Shown: positions 1 to 57,199, counted from the first letter of the stretch. The stretch is DNA of 64,000 nucleotides from a virus (IMGVR_UViG_3300007177_000042), one strand, 5' to 3'. Notes: generated by a model from the sequence alone, not told the origin. Numbers and translations are program-made.

Positions 1-138
1 ATGTCGTTCTTTTGTTTGTTGTTCACGATTTGCAGCGATAATAGGTCGCATCATAGCTTCGACTGCCTCGTCTTGAGTCAATAATTTGACGCCACACCGC
101 GAATCTATTTCTTTATTTAAGTCCTCTGTGGTTTTCAT
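1..138 (-). CDS. hypothetical protein, runs off the window edge (MKTTEDLNKEIDSRCGVK...)
   Basis: ATG at 138, open frame to position 1, overlaps the end of the upstream gene. Confidence 0.55.
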   Translation of the reverse strand, partial: MKTTEDLNKEIDSRCGVKLLTQDEAVEAMMRPIIAANREQQTKERH

Positions 139-4350: not shown

Positions 4351-6645
4351 TTACACTGCTTTGTTGTTCTTGTCAATGCTATTGATGTAATTGGCAAGAA
4401 CAGTCATCTCCGACATAAAATAATTGTGATTGTATCGCCAACCACGAACAAAGCCAATGTGGATAAACAATTCATAATTACTGATTGCTTCTTTATAATC
4501 ATCATCAAATTTCTTAGACAAATCATTAAATTTATGGATGGGTTCTTCCATATTCAAATTTCTACTGATATTCGAAATAATCGAATAATTTCCGTTTTGG
4601 TATTTTGAAACCGTATTCAAAAACTTTGCAATCTTCGTATTCTTGTTATTAAGAAGATTGTACAGTTCTTTAGCAGCCTTGGCTTCCAATCCATATTCAC
4701 AATGGCTCAGAAAGTTCTTGTATCCAAGATACTCGTAATATTCATTGGTTTTGAGCGTATTAACCACGTTAATAGCCTCCTCAACCAAATTTCTCCAATT
4801 GGCTTTATTGGCCTGAAAAGACTTGGATTCAATAACACGACGGTTGAATCCATACACAGGAGATCCGCTAACAGGAAACGAAACAAAAAAATGTTTGTTC
4901 AATTCTTCCAACGCTTCAGTAAGACTGCTCAGGGTATAAATTTTATCATTGTGATTGATTTCACCGTCGAACAAAGGAACATAACAACCATTTGTGGTGG
5001 TCAAATCAATTTCTGCTTCGGTTTCGAACTTATATCTACGATTTCTGGTACTTAGACTATCCACCTTGACACGGGTAAGTTCAGACTTGGGCTTACGAAC
5101 CCTCTTGTTTTCAGCCTTAACTTCCTCAAACACCTCGGAAAGACGAGGAATGTTTAGATTTCCAAGATTATAGTGATTGATAAACGATGTATAAAAAGCA
5201 TTGCTAGTAAACTTCAACATATAAACCGTAGATACGGTCTGATTATACTTCTCAATCAACTTTGACATACACTTGGTGGTGAGGGAGGTCTTGTCAATAT
5301 CATTGATAACCAACATGGTGTTTTTTCGAGCCACCACGTCCGACGACGAGTGCCAATGAGCCTGCTTAACTCGCCAACCAACTCCAGACCGAGTGCTGTG
5401 AGTATAAATGGTCAATACAGGATCGTTTGCAACTGGGGTCTTGCTGTTAATAAGATTTTTGTAAGTGTCATCGCTAATCAATCCGTTGATATTGCACCAA
5501 CGTTCTACATCACGAAACATGGAGTTAGTAATATCAACCCCTTGGTTACGAATAGTTCCAATACGGTTTTCGAAGCCATAAAACTTGGAACCATAAACTT
5601 CAAAAAATTCGTTATACCGGATTTTAGCATCCCAGATAGTCTTTTCTTTTTCAAACGTATCCAGAATAGTTTTCTTGATATGATCAATAACGTTATTGAT
5701 TCGTGAATAAATATTCTTGAGCGTATGTTCGCTGTATTGAAGACTTTCACGACTGGAACTGATTTCCAGATCGCCAATATTAAACTTGATCAACAGACTG
5801 TTATAGTTTCTTCCGAGAAACTGAGAAAGCAGGTTGTTGTTGGTCTGAACATTAGGATCATTTGATTTGGAGCTGTTTTCGTTAATAATTGAAAAACTAA
5901 TAGGATAGGTCACATTACCCATCAGTGCAAGCAACCTAGTGTTAGCCATGTTGTTATGGTCTTCAAAAATCTTCCAATCATTAGACTCAAGAACAGACTT
6001 GATATCATAACAAAAAGACTTGTCTTCATAACCAGCCACGCTAGGACGAACGTCCCAGTGAACATAAAATGCTCGGGCCTTGGTTGCAAACTGATTAAAA
6101 TCACAACTCTTCACAGGAACAGTGATTTCCACACCAGTTTTATCGGTGGGAGCCATATCCTCTTCATGGAGCTTGCTGATCTTACCCTTCTTGGATGGGT
6201 CGATAACGGCGTTATAGACGGTTTTCTTGCCGCCGTGGTAACTGGTGATTACGAAGTTATCCCCGTAAGCAAAAGCGCTCTTGGAACCAAATCCAAGCTG
6301 CCCAACGGTGTCGTTGTCGTTTCGCTTGGTGCTACAGCCGTACCAAGCATAAACATTCTTTACATCCTCTTCGCTCAAACCGTGTCCGTAGTCACGAACC
6401 TTGAACTCGGGAAACAACGTATTGGGAAGGCTGATTCGAATAGGAGTGTTCTTGATACCAGCAACAACGTGAGCGTCATATGCGTTGGTACTGTATTCAC
6501 GAATCACTGCTAGAATCTTGTCAGAGTACATCTGATTACGAAGTACACTGAAAATATGGGACAGATCTTCACTACGAATACCAAATTGGTAGCTAGTAAA
6601 CGGAGTGGATTCGGTGAGAATACGATTATTTTCGAGAGTTTTCAT
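4351..6645 (-). CDS. rIIA: rIIA-like protein (GHKL/HSP90-type ATPase N-terminus)
   Basis: IREYSTNAYDAH, VRDYGHGL, GQLGFGSKS, TGVEITVP, SSSRESLQY. Confidence 0.85.
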   Translation of the reverse strand: MKTLENNRILTESTPFTSYQFGIRSEDLSHIFSVLRNQMYSDKILAVIREYSTNAYDAHVVAGIKNTPIRISLPNTLFPEFKVRDYGHGLSEEDVKNVYAWYGCSTKRNDNDTVGQLGFGSKSAFAYGDNFVITSYHGGKKTVYNAVIDPSKKGKISKLHEEDMAPTDKTGVEITVPVKSCDFNQFATKARAFYVHWDVRPSVAGYEDKSFCYDIKSVLESNDWKIFEDHNNMANTRLLALMGNVTYPISFSIINENSSKSNDPNVQTNNNLLSQFLGRNYNSLLIKFNIGDLEISSSRESLQYSEHTLKNIYSRINNVIDHIKKTILDTFEKEKTIWDAKIRYNEFFEVYGSKFYGFENRIGTIRNQGVDITNSMFRDVERWCNINGLISDDTYKNLINSKTPVANDPVLTIYTHSTRSGVGWRVKQAHWHSSSDVVARKNTMLVINDIDKTSLTTKCMSKLIEKYNQTVSTVYMLKFTSNAFYTSFINHYNLGNLNIPRLSEVFEEVKAENKRVRKPKSELTRVKVDSLSTRNRRYKFETEAEIDLTTTNGCYVPLFDGEINHNDKIYTLSSLTEALEELNKHFFVSFPVSGSPVYGFNRRVIESKSFQANKANWRNLVEEAINVVNTLKTNEYYEYLGYKNFLSHCEYGLEAKAAKELYNLLNNKNTKIAKFLNTVSKYQNGNYSIISNISRNLNMEEPIHKFNDLSKKFDDDYKEAISNYELFIHIGFVRGWRYNHNYFMSEMTVLANYINSIDKNNKAV

Positions 6646-6669
6646 AGAGTAGATTTCGATTACCCAACC

Positions 6670-6697
6670 ATCTTATCAGGAGATTAGAGAAAGTCAA
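6670..6697 (-). promoter_or_regulatory. promoter TTGACT-16-TAAGAT for rIIA/rIIB; -35 contains the upstream TGA stop
   Basis: read from sequence. Confidence 0.7.
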
Positions 6698-6888
6698 GCC
6701 TTTGTTGAACGTTGTTCATAGTCTTTTTCTGCTTTTTGAATTACGACTTTGATAAAGTCTTCACAGATTCCCGATTGCTTTTTCTTGGCAATATCTTCTT
6801 TTATAGCATATTGTTTCCACTTTGGCAGTTTGTTGTATTCATTTTCATAAACGACAGCGTAAATTTTAGATAAGTCCATGATATACAA
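6694..6888 (-). CDS. hypothetical protein
   Basis: ORF track; fills the gap on the main strand. Confidence 0.6.
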   Translation of the reverse strand: MYIMDLSKIYAVVYENEYNKLPKWKQYAIKEDIAKKKQSGICEDFIKVVIQKAEKDYEQRSTKA

Positions 6889-6951
6889 CCATATACTGTC
6901 CGTGAACGAAAGTCAATAGTGATTTTTAGAATGAAAAAACGAGGATTTTCC

Positions 6952-6980
6952 TTGACGAAGGCACATATGTATGACATGAT
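6952..6980 (+). promoter_or_regulatory. promoter TTGACG-17-CATGAT (extended TG) for the inverted pth2 operon
   Basis: same architecture as the minus-strand promoters; ATG 7 nt downstream at 6988. Confidence 0.65.
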
Positions 6981-6987
6981 ACAACAT

Positions 6988-7041
6988 ATGATGGATATTT
7001 CTTAGATCAAACCAGAAACGTAGGTTGACGAAACCTATCGT
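6988..7041 (+). other. in-frame 5' extension of pth2 with two TAG codons (MMDIS*IKPET*VDETYR)
   Basis: ATG 6988, TAG 7003-7005 and 7021-7023, all in frame with TTG 7042. Confidence 0.7.
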
Positions 7042-7395
7042 TTGTATGCTCTTGTCAGAACAGACTTGGGCATGTCTACCGGCAAAATTGCTTCTCAAGC
7101 CGGACACGCATACCTTGGTGCGTTTCTTCAATGCAAGGATTCTACTTCAATAGCAGCTTACCATAGTGATTTTCCAGCTTCGCCTGGAACCAAGGTCTGT
7201 CTGCAAGTATCTAATTTAGACCAGCTTCTGCGTGCTGAACATTTGGCACAAGAAGCTGGTCTTTCTTTTTATCGTGTGGTTGACAGCGGTTGTAGCAATT
7301 TCTACAACGGAGAACCTACCATTACGGCTTTGGGAATTGGTCCCGCCACCAAATCTCAAATACAACACATAACCCGGCGGTTTAAACTAATGTAA
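7042..7395 (+). CDS. pth2: peptidyl-tRNA hydrolase, Pth2 family (start TTG 7042, or ATG 6988 by read-through)
   Basis: YALVRTDLGMSTGKIASQAGHA, KVCL, VVDSG, TALGIGP. Confidence 0.88.
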   Translation: MYALVRTDLGMSTGKIASQAGHAYLGAFLQCKDSTSIAAYHSDFPASPGTKVCLQVSNLDQLLRAEHLAQEAGLSFYRVVDSGCSNFYNGEPTITALGIGPATKSQIQHITRRFKLM

Positions 7396-7399
7396 ACAT

Positions 7400-7771
7400 A
7401 TGAACAAATTCACTAACAAACAAGAATACCTAGCTTACCGCACTCAGTGGAAGTCCGACTATAAACAGCTCAGTCAAAGGATCCGTGACTATAAATGGAT
7501 GCGAAAACACTATACCCGTGTTGCTGCTCCACTGTTGAATGATGCTACGTTGAATTATATCACAGCATCCAATAAAATCAATGAGGCATTGAATAACAAT
7601 GAACGTTATTCAAAGTTGTTCAAACACTATGACTTGAAACAACATTATCAAACGTTTTATCTTTACGGTTTGAAAACACTTGCAACACAAATGTTGTTGG
7701 AATTGAAAGAAGCTAAAATTGAGGCTCAACGTCAATATCTGGCAGAAAAACAATCTACAGTATGTGTATAA
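7400..7771 (+). CDS. basic helical hypothetical protein co-transcribed with pth2
   Basis: 4 nt after the pth2 stop; followed by a terminator. Confidence 0.75.
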   Translation: MNKFTNKQEYLAYRTQWKSDYKQLSQRIRDYKWMRKHYTRVAAPLLNDATLNYITASNKINEALNNNERYSKLFKHYDLKQHYQTFYLYGLKTLATQMLLELKEAKIEAQRQYLAEKQSTVCV

Positions 7772-7775
7772 AAAG

Positions 7776-7806
7776 AAACCCCACCAAAAGGTGGGGTTTT
7801 TGTTTT
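7776..7806. terminator. bidirectional intrinsic terminator
   Basis: AAACCCCACC-AAAA-GGTGGGGTTT with A-run and T-run flanks, between convergent genes. Confidence 0.85.
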
Positions 7807-8895
7807 TTACTTCTTCAAAACCTGAAACATCAGCTTTTTATACTCTTCTTTTCCAAGAGGTTTGTTGTCGAGCATCTTGAATAGAAACGACGCTCGGTTC
7901 GTTTCTCCATACGAAGCAATAACAACTTGTGCCTGTTCTTTACGTGTAGGCAACGAACGTAGTCTAGTGTTAATAAACAAATTCATTCCCCACACAATCT
8001 TGTCTACCTCTTTTTTGGCATCAACAATCTTGCTGATCATACCCTTGCACTGTTCGGCAAGTTCATAATCAAAAGTGTTAAAGATATAGTTGTAGAAAGT
8101 ACCATAGTCAGGCATACCCTGTTCCAACCATACGTCCATAACCTTTTCAATGTTTGATAGCTCAGACTTTAAATGATGAAGCGTAAGATACCAAAAACCT
8201 TTTCGCTTGTGGATACCAACTGGGCTATAGATAACCACACCCTCCTTACCCTTCCAAGTTTCAACATCCTTGATCAAATCGTCAATGCTAGGAAACGTAT
8301 AAGTAACAGGACGCTTGAATCCCTTGTTCTTAGCCCAGATATCCAACTCGGACTGTGAATACAAACTATAATCGTTGTGATTAACTAGTCCCACCACATA
8401 CCAATCGGGTTCATCACCATAGTTCAATACAATCTTGTTGATAGGACTAACCCATTCAAACAAAATCGATACATTCCAAGTATCAGGTGTATCGTGAGTC
8501 AAGCTCTTTAGGAACTTTTCCTTGAACAATTCCAACTCATGACCATTAGCCAGAGTTGAAGCATCAACAGTTCCACGGGTTCGTAGAATATATTGGCCCT
8601 TATACTTGCTAACAATCAATAGAGAACCATCAAGCTTCTCCACGACGGTGCAGTTCTTCAGTGACGACGGAACAGGAAAGTGTTCGGGATTCTCGCCCCA
8701 GTTGGTAAACTTAGGAAAGCCTGCACTAATAAGTTCACCCTCACTGTTCCACACGCTGGATCGAAGATGTTTGTTATCCTGAGTCCACTTGGTTCCAATG
8801 TGTTGTGGCTGAACCAAAGTTACAACCTCACCCGCAACCATGTGCTGATGTGCCATGAATTGGGTCAAATCCAACGTTTCTAGATTAATTTTCAT
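7807..8895 (-). CDS. RNA ligase, T4 Rnl1-like
   Basis: SAGFPKFTNWGE, EKLDGSL, TRGT, LFEWVSP.N.IV, EGVVI. Confidence 0.8.
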   Translation of the reverse strand: MKINLETLDLTQFMAHQHMVAGEVVTLVQPQHIGTKWTQDNKHLRSSVWNSEGELISAGFPKFTNWGENPEHFPVPSSLKNCTVVEKLDGSLLIVSKYKGQYILRTRGTVDASTLANGHELELFKEKFLKSLTHDTPDTWNVSILFEWVSPINKIVLNYGDEPDWYVVGLVNHNDYSLYSQSELDIWAKNKGFKRPVTYTFPSIDDLIKDVETWKGKEGVVIYSPVGIHKRKGFWYLTLHHLKSELSNIEKVMDVWLEQGMPDYGTFYNYIFNTFDYELAEQCKGMISKIVDAKKEVDKIVWGMNLFINTRLRSLPTRKEQAQVVIASYGETNRASFLFKMLDNKPLGKEEYKKLMFQVLKK

Positions 8896-10006
8896 TTTTT
8901 GAATTGTTTGATCTGTAACTTATTCCATGCATTCCGTCCATCTCTGTCTCACCAAAAGCAGCCCGCCGATGATCTGAATATACCTTACGACCTCTGTAAG
9001 CTTTGTATTTCCATAGTTTTTTAGCAACTGGACAAAGCGAATCAGTAGTACATCCACAGTTAATTTTCATACGATATTTCCACTAAACATTAAATGTTGT
9101 TGTTTAGGTTTGCGTTTTGTAGGCTTTTTTGGTTGCGGAGGCGTTGGTGCAGTCAGTGTGTAGCAATGTTCCGAATCTTCGGTGGGAACAGGTCCACAAC
9201 CGCATCCACATGCGAATCCATGATAAGATCGGATTGGACGATTTTCTCGTTTGGCTTGTGCAAACATAAGCGATTCAATCCAACGATATTCTCTCATTTG
9301 CTTTTGAGAAAAGAAATACCGTCCTTTCGGTGAAGAACGTCTCGGCTTGTTATCGTAGTCAATTTTCATATCAATCAATATGTTCCCGAGTTGCTAAAAT
9401 CTTTTTTACTCTATTTTTATAACCAGTTAGATGTGCTATTTCAGGAACTATGACTCTTTCAAATTCCTCTTTTCCCAAAATCCAACTATTGCATAAATTA
9501 CAACATATGCCATAAGACATTTTTCGTCGTCGCACTTTATGTTCAATTGCTCTAATTGAGTTTAGAACCCCAAGCAATCTATTTGTATTGAGTTTTTGTA
9601 ACTCATTAACGGTCAAGAATTTGAGAAACGGCTTTGATTTCAAAGGTTTTTGTTTCATATACCCACTTTACCACGACTTTATCAAAAGTCAACTGGTTTC
9701 TTTCAACCGATTTTCTTTCAAAAGCTGCCAGTAATGTTCATAACTGGTACTGTTTTCAAATACTGCCAAATCTTTTTGATATCTTGCAATTTCTTCTTTA
9801 TACGCAGCAACTCGTTCTTGTCTAACAGTTTCAAATAAACGAGAACGTGTTACGACGTATTCTTTTTCATCCCAATAATGGTCGGTATATGTATCTTTAA
9901 ACGTCACATCATTGTCTGTATGAGACACATAGTTTTTATTTTCTGTATCTATGAACCGTTCATGCACAGATCCAGTATATCCAATTTCATAGTATGTTAT
10001 CTTCAT
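8885..10006 (-). CDS. run of four small hypothetical genes (8885-9070, 9067-9370, 9371-9658, 9689-10006)
   Basis: abutting or overlapping ORFs on the main strand. Confidence 0.55.
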
Positions 10007-55769: not shown

Positions 55770-56048
55770 CTAGATACTATAATCTATGATTGGAGGCTTG
55801 TCAAGATTAGCCAATAGAGTCTTGGTTCTCGTCAAGTTATATCTGGCTTTATGCAATGCCTTTTTGAATCCATCAATATTATCACGTTTGGTTAACCAGT
55901 GGTGTTCACTTAACTCTTCACGTCGAATCATGATTTGTAAACCTTTGACTTCGCCTTCGTATTTTACGATCTGATGTTCGTATAACTTGCGAAGTCGATC
56001 TTTTTCACTAAGACCTTCGGTGTTTTTCCATAATTCGTATGCATTCAT
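55770..56048 (-). CDS. hypothetical protein (TAG stop)
   Basis: ORF track; TAG-T-ATG junction. Confidence 0.6.
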   Translation of the reverse strand: MNAYELWKNTEGLSEKDRLRKLYEHQIVKYEGEVKGLQIMIRREELSEHHWLTKRDNIDGFKKALHKARYNLTRTKTLLANLDKPPIIDYSI

Positions 56049-56050
56049 AC

Positions 56051-57199
56051 TTATCGATCACTCTTGAAACAATTATCAGGATCGACACGTCCATAATTCG
56101 GTGTTCCAAGTCCGGTAAGTCCCATATAAAGGAACGTAACCTCCTTGCCGATCCACTTGTTCTTTTCCTTCAAGATTTGAGCACGCTTCTCATAACTACC
56201 CTTAAACACAGCATCAAATGTAACGTTCTTCCACTTGAGAGTCACATTGGTAGCAGCACCCTTCCAGTTACCATCACCATCTGTGATGTCAAGAATCGTA
56301 CCCTCGTCATCATCTTCACTCTTGACCTTCACAAGATTCTTGGAACGCTTGTGCTCATAAGGAGCATCCATTTTACGAAGAATGCCACCCTCCTGTTGGT
56401 CATTGAGAAGATCCTGAAACAACTGGTTCATGTGGTCATTCGACTTGACAATCGTGGTTTCGACTTCAACAAAATACTTGGAAAGAGGAATCACAACCTT
56501 GTCGATCCAATTCTTGCGTTCAGAGTATGGAGCTTCCTCGTCCAAAATATCCGATTTGCCACGGAAATTGTAACCGTCATAGATATAAAACTTGACCTTC
56601 TTCTCACTTTCTGCCAAATCGGAAGGATCAATATTTTTCGTCTTACGAATCAACTTGCTGATTTCGTTCAGCTGTTGACGAAGATCATTATTGAACAGCT
56701 CACCGTCGAGAACTGCATTGGGATATTCCTTGAAGAAAGGTTTGAGAGCGTTCTCAACGTGCGGTACACTGACATACTTCTCACCCTTTCTGGTAAACAA
56801 CCCGTCCTTGGTAGCAATACAACGATTGCCATTGAATTTACACTGCATTGCCCACTTATCCTTGGCAAAGTCCGGTTGCTTGGTGAGCTTGTTAAGAGGT
56901 TGTGCCAACATAGGTTCCACATACGTAGAAACGTCAACGTCCTTGACACTTTTGTGGTATCCAGTCTTCAACTGTTTCTTGTACTTGGCTTCGATTTCAG
57001 CCGTTGCCTGTTCGATTGCGGTGGTCTCATTTGACCGCCCAACATTCTTGGCTTCAGCATGACTCCACTCGGAAGTCACCTTTTCACCATCGGTGAGTCC
57101 AGCGACAGTACGATACTTGCTACCGTTCTGTTCCATGTACCAGACACGAATGTTTCCGAGTGAATCCTTGGTGTAGAGCGTAGAATAGGTCTTGATCAT
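56051..57199 (-). CDS. lig: ATP-dependent DNA ligase (with N-terminal domain)
   Basis: PMLA, KFNGNR, LDGELF, YIYD, EGGILR, YEHKRS..L.K.K. Confidence 0.9.
   Translation of the reverse strand: MIKTYSTLYTKDSLGNIRVWYMEQNGSKYRTVAGLTDGEKVTSEWSHAEAKNVGRSNETTAIEQATAEIEAKYKKQLKTGYHKSVKDVDVSTYVEPMLAQPLNKLTKQPDFAKDKWAMQCKFNGNRCIATKDGLFTRKGEKYVSVPHVENALKPFFKEYPNAVLDGELFNNDLRQQLNEISKLIRKTKNIDPSDLAESEKKVKFYIYDGYNFRGKSDILDEEAPYSERKNWIDKVVIPLSKYFVEVETTIVKSNDHMNQLFQDLLNDQQEGGILRKMDAPYEHKRSKNLVKVKSEDDDEGTILDITDGDGNWKGAATNVTLKWKNVTFDAVFKGSYEKRAQILKEKNKWIGKEVTFLYMGLTGLGTPNYGRVDPDNCFKSDR

Follow-up and report, generated by a model that had tools for sequence, protein, structure and literature searches.

A clade of Pth2-like genes with early in-frame stop codons, probably gated by suppressor tRNAs

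The stretch of DNA analysed here, referred to as the window, comprises 64,000 nucleotides (nt) of the virus IMGVR_UViG_3300007177_000042, a freshwater jumbo phage. Its plus strand carries a small operon made of a promoter, a Pth2-like gene, a second gene that we call the partner and a terminator (Table 1). The Pth2 frame reads ATG ATG GAT ATT TCT TAG ATC AAA CCA GAA ACG TAG GTT GAC GAA ACC TAT CGT TTG TAT GCT, with TAG as codons 6 and 12, an early in-frame stop as in prfB-type recoding. ATG 6988, both TAGs, TTG 7042, ATG 7072 and the TAA at 7393-7395 all share this frame. An earlier note on this DNA, made from the sequence alone, had described the promoter, the start, the stops and the frame, and every one of its coordinates was verified in the sequence, including the 7 nt that separate the end of CATGAT from ATG 6988. 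Comparison with relatives leads us to consider it likely that the window Pth2 is gated by a suppressor tRNA: translation would start at a leaderless AUG, both UAGs would be decoded by a tRNA with the anticodon CUA, and the partner would be gated along with Pth2. A dedicated tRNA and a conserved downstream gene were both absent from the earlier note.

Table 1. Features of the Pth2 operon, in positions counted from the first nucleotide of the window.
Feature	Position	Strand	Description
Promoter	6952..6980	+	-35 TTGACG at 6952-6957, 17-nt spacer, -10 CATGAT at 6975-6980, TG ahead of the -10
Full proposed Pth2 frame	6988..7395	+	135 codons including two UAGs; stop TAA at 7393-7395
Leader open reading frame, start	6988..7002	+	AUG 6988 (probably leaderless), second ATG at 6991, variable codons MMDIS
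First in-frame TAG	7003..7005	+	Unchanged in L001-L004 and X1/X2
Inter-TAG codons	7006..7020	+	ATC AAA CCA GAA ACG = IKPET
Second in-frame TAG	7021..7023	+	Context ACG TAG GTT = family consensus
Conserved N-terminal coding segment	7024..7071	+	VDETYRLYALVRTDLG; includes the first beta strand and aligns to homologue N-termini
TTG	7042..7044	+	Possible suppressor-independent fallback start, in the window phage only; the only canonical start between the second TAG and ATG 7072
Partner gene	7400..7771	+	123 amino acids, 4 nt past the Pth2 stop, no Shine-Dalgarno site of its own, long helical hairpin
Terminator hairpin, two-way	7774..7801	.	12-bp stem, T runs on both strands; closes the Pth2-partner operon and the convergent RNA ligase gene

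Profile searches mark the gene as Pth2-like and as a predicted peptidyl-tRNA hydrolase. The open reading frame (ORF) taken from TTG 7042 scores 87.1 bits against PF01981 (cut-off 23) and aligns to positions 3-115 of the 115-position profile. The clade defined below yields a profile that matches 7 solved Pth2 proteins with E values from 4e-17 to 1e-12; the PDB relatives 2zv3, 1xty, 1rlk, 3erj, 1wn2 and 1q7s (human Bit1) are matched from the first strand onward. The same profile aligns from residue 4 of 2zv3, covering the segment upstream of ATG 7072, and residues K21, S24, Q25, H28, D87, S88 and G89 (motifs GK..SQ..HA and D-[AS]-G of the putative active-site region) are invariant in the homologue alignment, aligned to 2zv3. 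With these archaeal and eukaryotic Pth2 proteins the gene shares a full-length domain match to the C-terminus, but they start at an ordinary ATG, whereas the bacterial and phage clade (about 35% identity) has a putatively gated leader, a linked suppressor tRNA and the partner.

Homologue DNA was taken from genomes, metagenomes and viral contigs, giving a clade of 89 distinct loci of 41-93% identity, and in each the stop was defined as the first in-frame one upstream of the conserved LRLYA(L/I/V)VRxDLGM. The earlier note had named a conserved upstream in-frame TAG as something to look for in homologues, and this is what the clade holds: the stop is TAG in 87 of 89 loci, TAA in one and TGA in one, with the frame kept and the stop 16-32 codons ahead of the DLGM methionine. 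In a comparison set of 22 archaeal or distant homologues with ordinary ATG starts, the corresponding stops were TAA in 9, TAG in 7 and TGA in 6. On these counts the early stop in this Pth2 clade is far beyond chance. The codon preceding the stop is ACG or ACA in 69/88 loci, and the one following it is GTT, GTA or GTG in 71/88. The layout of two TAGs with a 5-codon spacer recurs in L041, L049, L105 and L106, the last reading MNT-stop-IDSPT-stop-VDTTLRLY against MMDIS-stop-IKPET-stop-VDETYRLY in the window. In a maximum-likelihood tree, all gated loci form one supported group (99/90).

The stop is accompanied by a tRNA. ARAGORN identifies a tRNA-CUA in the same orientation as Pth2, in most cases 50-700 nt ahead of it, and the anticodon matches the stop in all 75 of the 75 loci that have a suppressor tRNA in the fetched DNA. 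This holds for the exceptional stops as well: one locus (L111) combines two in-frame TAA codons with tRNA-UUA, and another (L117) combines TGA with tRNA-UCA. Because L111 is nested among TAG loci in the tree (98/92), stop and anticodon changed together. The 62 distinct tRNA sequences encode CCA, have 19 different acceptor stems, fully paired in 53/54, and share the anticodon loop CUCUAAA in 56/62; to judge from these features, the linked suppressor tRNAs look functional. We rejected the letter Q at the stop position of some database proteins as evidence that glutamine is inserted, since the TAG in those proteins was translated by a code-15 gene caller.

Further tRNA genes were seen at individual loci. 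A tandem pair of tRNA-CUA genes lies upstream of a single gated Pth2 (L048:933-1100), and tRNA-like genes recur a few hundred nt downstream of the partner (L050:2653-2732, L055:3681-3760, L060:2332-2411, L061:2771-2850, L067:1002-1081, L108:4374-4453, L109:3657-3735). The anticodon arm of these tRNA-like genes is a 6-bp stem with a GCAA tetraloop, so they have no anticodon; they may be a further part of the module or a decoy RNA.

A conserved stop matched by a linked tRNA might also be read in quite another way, namely that translation starts downstream of the stops, at TTG 7042 or ATG 7072, and that ACR-TAG-GTW is a non-translated T-box-like specifier or a DNA/RNA binding site. A specifier would likewise predict the covariation of stop and anticodon, and public gene callers do use ATG 7072 or its equivalent, so that most homologues are called as 107-aa (amino acid) products from an internal methionine, with TTG 7042 as a further possible start in the window. 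These calls omit the first strand of the fold, which lies upstream of ATG 7072, and ATG, GTG and TTG are all absent between the stop and that strand in 76/88 loci; the column of TTG 7042 itself is start-capable in 9 of 81 distinct aligned sequences. The earlier note had stated that TTG 7042 lacks a Shine-Dalgarno site, and the 20 nt ahead of it (AGGTTGACGAAACCTATCGT) indeed contain no GGAG-type site. The segment behind the stop is moreover conserved as protein: in the 81-sequence alignment, the arginine preceding the TTG-7042 column has a CGN codon in 61 sequences and an AGR codon in 18, and the use of both codon families argues for selection on the protein and not on an RNA motif. The motif also stays in frame in all loci despite the 16-32-codon variation in its distance, and a T-box is not borne out by Rfam, which has no match here, or by RNA folding, in which 0 pairs are conserved over 81 sequences. 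A start downstream of the stops is, in our judgement, quite unlikely.

Close relatives show the same pattern at finer resolution. A relative with a 93% identical Pth2 (L001-L004) keeps both TAGs, their spacing and the promoter geometry, L001 reading TTGACA-17-GAAGAT-7-ATG GAA AAT AAC TCT TAG ATC AAA CCA GAG ACG TAG GTT GAC AAC ACC TAT CGT CTA TAT GCT. Between the TAGs, the sole difference of the window from L001 is the synonymous GAA>GAG, and most of the changes beyond the second TAG are silent (TTG>CTA, AGA>CGA, ACA>ACG, GAC>GAT). As TTG 7042 is CTA in L001, that relative is without a canonical start ahead of the first strand. In contigs of an approximately 95%-identical freshwater strain (runs X1 and X2), leader codons 2-5 differ from the window at 5 of their 12 bases, the TAGs and the inter-TAG codons are unchanged, and a synonymous GAA>GAG occurs at 7032. 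Thus the ATG, the leader length and the frame are constant although codons 2-5 vary between strains. The window phage or near relatives are present in freshwater metagenomes of 13 studies; a megablast of window positions 6000-9000 against GenBank phages and a single-protein scan of IMG/VR for relatives each gave no match.

The earlier note had also remarked that the promoter stands at the same distance from ATG 6988 as other promoters of the window from their genes. The pattern TTGAC[AGT]-16..18-nAnn[AT]T-5..9-ATG matches 7 places in the window; 5 of these coincide exactly with the start of a long ORF, and a sixth is ATG 6988. Promoters of the form TTGACn-17-TAnnAT end 5-9 nt ahead of the long-ORF ATGs at 57199, 43591, 32620, 13367 and 1527, all on the minus strand. 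This class of promoter-to-ATG junctions suggests that leaderless mRNAs are common in the window phage. Across the clade, a promoter-like site ends 5-9 nt ahead of an in-frame ATG in 34/86 loci, and a Shine-Dalgarno-like site is found in 6/86; in 28 loci, ATG-ACN-TAG or another stop follows directly behind the promoter. Both the promoter geometry shared with gene starts and the scarcity of Shine-Dalgarno-like sites favour the leaderless start that the earlier note had put forward.

The leader that results is a very short ORF of the size of the bar minigenes (ATG, four codons and TAG in the window, ATG-ACN-stop in the 28 relatives). In lambda bar and synthetic two-codon minigenes, which are free-standing, peptidyl-tRNA drop-off is toxic when Pth is limiting. 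An unsuppressed Pth2 leader would likewise be a minigene, here ahead of a peptidyl-tRNA-hydrolase-like gene. Unlike those minigenes, it is fused in frame to a conserved protein, and its peptide varies from MMDIS in the window to MTNNL in X1/X2 and MENNS in L001, being just M-T in most relatives. Because the peptide is not conserved, the suggestion that the MMDIS minigene serves as a drop-off sensor is weak as stated. In the window, a hairpin at 7016-7043 (ACGUAGGUU / AACCUAUCGU) encloses the second UAG, and the z-score for folding 6988-7107 is -2.9. We rejected conservation of such a hairpin in the family, RNAalifold finding 0 conserved pairs over the 81 sequences. An Rfam scan of 6600-7400 gave no match in the leader, and weak leader and small-RNA matches were confined to the terminator at 7774-7801.

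If the whole phage were recoded, with TAG as an amino acid (code 15), Pth2 would be just one of many TAG-bearing genes. The IMG/VR fragment that contains the window is 171,680 bp long (36.9% G+C, 49% complete as estimated by CheckV), and its long non-overlapping ORFs cover 0.892 of the sequence in code 11 and 0.888 with TAG as a sense codon. TAG ends 9 of the fragment's 210 long ORFs, including the minus-strand ORFs at 55770 and 29530, and a search for other TAG-interrupted genes across the 171.7 kb found none that is convincing. The genome as a whole is not recoded and the standard code fits, as the earlier note had held in calling TAG an ordinary but rare stop. Recoded phages do carry CUA suppressor tRNAs (bioRxiv 10.1101/2021.08.26.457843), and some pipelines already translate relatives with TAG as Q, both of which count for recoding; set against coverage that does not rise, the use of TAG as a stop and the lack of a second interrupted gene, recoding is scarcely credible. 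Public callers either cut genes of this clade to 107 aa or read TAG as Q (P0024, P0036, P0092, L293), and databases hold truncated or false-Q proteins as a result.

Two cultured phages, sisters in the tree, show the same pairing of stop and anticodon. In the Agrobacterium phage Atu_ph07, the Pth2-like coding sequence is annotated from an internal ATG; upstream in frame we read ATG ATT GGC GAA CAC TTT TGA ATT AAT ... KLRIYSIVRDDLEM, with no canonical start past the TGA, and a tRNA-UCA at 430,713-430,787 matches that TGA. TGA is a common stop in Atu_ph07, whose authors reported its tRNA-UCA as an orphan suppressor (PMC6102473). The phage Phosso reads AGGAGAAAACGAA ATG AAG TAT TAG GTT ... KLRIYSIIRGDLEM and has two tRNA-CUA; it is exceptional in having a clear AGGAG Shine-Dalgarno site ahead of the ATG. 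With 63% identity, the suppressor tRNAs of the two phages are not orthologous. XacN1, phiM19, Phabba and Astolliot have more distant Pth2 genes, which begin in the ordinary way, and a target for the CUA suppressors of XacN1 was sought by its authors without success (PMC5852040). The window family thus resembles the jumbo phages with orphan suppressors (XacN1 with CUA, Atu_ph07 with UCA) in combining the standard code, a suppressor tRNA and a Pth2 gene. It differs in that their authors named no target, while the Pth2-like gene of Atu_ph07 here has a TGA that matches its tRNA-UCA; the XacN1 Pth2 lacks a gate.

The closest cellular homologues are found in metagenome-assembled genomes of Verrucomicrobiota (L005-L007), with the layout TTGACA-16/17-TATGMT-7-ATG ACA TAG GTA. 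One copy sits in a Verrucomicrobiae genome of 6.7 Mb, on a contig of 1.83 Mb; this genome has 48 tRNA matches, and in it prfA, the gene of release factor 1 (RF1), scores above the curated cut-off. Its tRNA-CUA (G001:C1:1386383-1386453, L278) scores 67.9 bits on the Rfam tRNA model and is most similar among the genome's own tRNAs to Arg(UCU) (79%), Arg(UCG) (73%) and Trp (72%), so that no isotype is assignable. The presence of a gated Pth2, a tRNA-CUA and the partner (L007) in a genome that bears RF1 points to a natural amber suppressor in a standard-code bacterium, and the Verrucomicrobiota loci together indicate that the stop-gated design is not limited to phages or to recoded genomes.

The third conserved component is the partner. 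By profile search, a partner homologue lies on the Pth2 strand, mostly directly after Pth2, in 77 of the 87 loci with enough downstream DNA; it is present in the Verrucomicrobiota loci and is the second gene downstream of Pth2 in Atu_ph07 and Phosso. It has two highly conserved helices, F..K..YLAYR..WK.EYK.LS..IR and AT.ML.ELKEAK.EAQRQYLA, which an AlphaFold (AF2) model folds into a long helical hairpin (mean-confidence score, pLDDT, 92). The protein matches no known family in the searches made: Pfam gave only LPD39 at E 0.009, PADLOC gave nothing, PHROGs gave a family of unknown function at E 3e-4, and Foldseek of PDB and AFDB together with an Atlas search returned generic coiled coils only. 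A complex prediction for Pth2 with the partner scored 0.03, which is evidence in neither direction.

Taken together, the comparison points to a conserved stop, covariation with a linked tRNA, protein-level selection behind the stop and, in most relatives, the lack of an alternative start. The earlier note had proposed that full-length Pth2 requires UAG read-through, and had named RF1 shortage or an amber suppressor tRNA as its cause; the comparison strongly supports the need for read-through and makes the tRNA the likely agent. In the mechanism that we favour, transcription from the 6952-6980 promoter would produce an mRNA beginning at or next to AUG 6988. Ribosomes initiating at this AUG would meet a UAG after 5 codons and a second one 5 codons later, and the Pth2 domain would be reached only when a CUA suppressor tRNA prevails over RF1 at both UAGs. 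The partner at 7400, apparently translationally coupled, would be gated together with Pth2. We infer that this tRNA is aminoacylated and does decode the two UAGs, and that it would be either the phage's own tRNA-CUA or one of the host.

Several observations weigh against this mechanism. A sequencing-run search found no RNA run that contains the window sequence. The 171.7-kb fragment holding the window, roughly half of the genome, yielded no tRNA. Collinear contigs extending to +52.5 kb past the window end hold tRNAs for Met, Arg(UCU), Lys, Thr, His, Glu, Trp and Asn, including at +49,048 nt, and confirm a tRNA region between +28 and +52 kb in the window phage; its own tRNA-CUA was not read on these contigs. 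An exact 28-mer from the collinear-contig end had no match in IMG/VR, and a degenerate tRNA-CUA pattern found 80 loci, none overlapping the window phage. The reverse link is weak, in that this Pth2 is nearby in 1 of 21 other viral CUA-tRNA loci. A complete domain without suppression is conceivable from TTG 7042 in the window phage, and two successive suppressions would be expected to give a low yield. The tRNA genes of the collinear contigs (L133:566-641, L133:4420-4497, L137:13046-13120, L139:12403-15243) lie among many very small ORFs.

A further difficulty for the mechanism comes from loci in which tRNA and leader adjoin. In six of them (L032, L048, L050, L065, L066, L109) the tRNA ends 8-25 nt ahead of the stop with no intervening ATG, and in L059 (1880-2010) ACG TAG GTT lies upstream of the tRNA-CUA and no stop interrupts the frame across the 75 nt of the tRNA gene. 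In L032 (1890-2010) the TAG stands 8 nt past the CCA end of the tRNA, with the frame again open through it. Where the tRNA abuts or lies inside the leader, a simple picture of AUG followed by read-through leaves the start of translation unexplained. Such loci could be accommodated if the stop were an entry point for the matching tRNA in some or all members, either like an initiator or as a resume point resembling that of transfer-messenger RNA on a tRNA-mRNA co-transcript, and L057, L066 and L111, which have no in-frame upstream ATG, would fit the same idea. Judged by the features of bacterial initiators, however, the tRNAs of this family are paired at 1-72 and do not show the three G-C pairs. 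The idea also sits poorly with the 28 loci in which a promoter is followed by ATG-ACN-stop, with the window and L001, which retain an ATG plus 5 codons, and with the normal Shine-Dalgarno site and ATG ahead of the TAG in Phosso, and we regard it as very unlikely.

As to what such a gate would be for, our preferred reading is that output of Pth2, as a tRNA-recycling enzyme, is tied to suppressor-tRNA activity; the tie could serve as a timer, as a licence or to limit damage from read-through. More speculatively, the suppressor tRNA, the stop-gated enzyme and its helical-hairpin partner might form a three-part, self-regulating and portable switch, in which the stop gauges charged suppressor tRNA against release factors and suppression is kept at a set level in phages and in standard-code bacteria such as Verrucomicrobiota. 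For this, the enzyme and partner would have to act back on the aminoacyl or peptidyl form of the suppressor tRNA or on ribosomes stalled by read-through; the proposal is tentative and we hold it to be rather doubtful.

A purpose of about the same tentative standing is the one that the earlier note had in mind, a sensor of termination capacity: scarcity or inhibition of RF1 would raise read-through of UAG and so induce Pth2 just as ribosomes stall at stops and peptidyl-tRNA drops off, the suppressor tRNA being no more than the competing decoder. It would refine the purpose of the gate and leave the mechanism as it is. The level of read-through is set by the ratio of suppressor tRNA to release factor, which counts for a sensor, as does the retention of RF1 beside the cassette in the cellular Verrucomicrobiae genome. 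A closed feedback loop as in prfB would be missing, because Pth2 is not known to act on release factors, and a sensor specific to RF1 misfits the use of TAA in L111, because TAA is read by both RF1 and RF2.

Among known systems, the gate resembles the code-15 phages (Borges et al., bioRxiv 10.1101/2021.08.26.457843; PMC9523058) in that in-frame TAG is decoded by a tRNA-CUA of the phage, on which expression of the TAG-bearing genes probably depends. In those phages, tens to hundreds of mostly late genes are affected and TAG is lost as a stop, whereas the Pth2 gate would act within a standard-code genome on one small operon with its stops at the very start, occurs in TAA and TGA versions, and is found on a chromosome that keeps RF1. 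The translation-factor gene prfB, which encodes release factor 2, likewise carries an in-frame stop a few codons from its start, and its expression hinges on how the stop is handled. There, a Shine-Dalgarno-like site promotes a +1 frameshift, and the UGA is itself a target of the product, which closes the loop; in the Pth2 gate the frame would be unchanged, a GGAG-like site is absent and a dedicated tRNA would be the decoder. Pth2 enzymes are not known to act at stop codons. A full-text literature search returned no paper linking Pth2 to suppressor-tRNA gating, the closest described phenomenon being genome-wide stop recoding in phages.

Two neighbouring genes on the minus strand flank the operon. 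A T4 Rnl1-type RNA ligase (7807-8895; PF09511, E 3.7e-12) converges on it and is the neighbour in the P0002 contig as well; it may indicate a context of tRNA repair. Divergent from the operon, at 4351-6645, lies the gene of a 764-aa protein that begins with an ATPase domain of the GHKL type (HATPase_c_3, E 4e-9).

If the gate operates as proposed, it would provide a concrete and conserved client gene for the suppressor tRNAs of standard-code phages, which were previously without known targets. It would also constitute a natural switch confined to a single operon, in which a dedicated tRNA licenses translation and stop and anticodon co-evolve. Many database entries would be corrected, both the truncated 107-aa calls and the false-Q code-15 products, and the tRNA, the leader and the context ACR-UAG-GUW would offer natural orthogonal parts for controlled read-through. 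Atu_ph07 on Agrobacterium C58 and Phosso on Sinorhizobium are cultured systems suited to testing the gate. For the biology of these phages, the partner protein, together with the connection to recycling of peptidyl-tRNA, suggests an undescribed form of translation quality control during infection.

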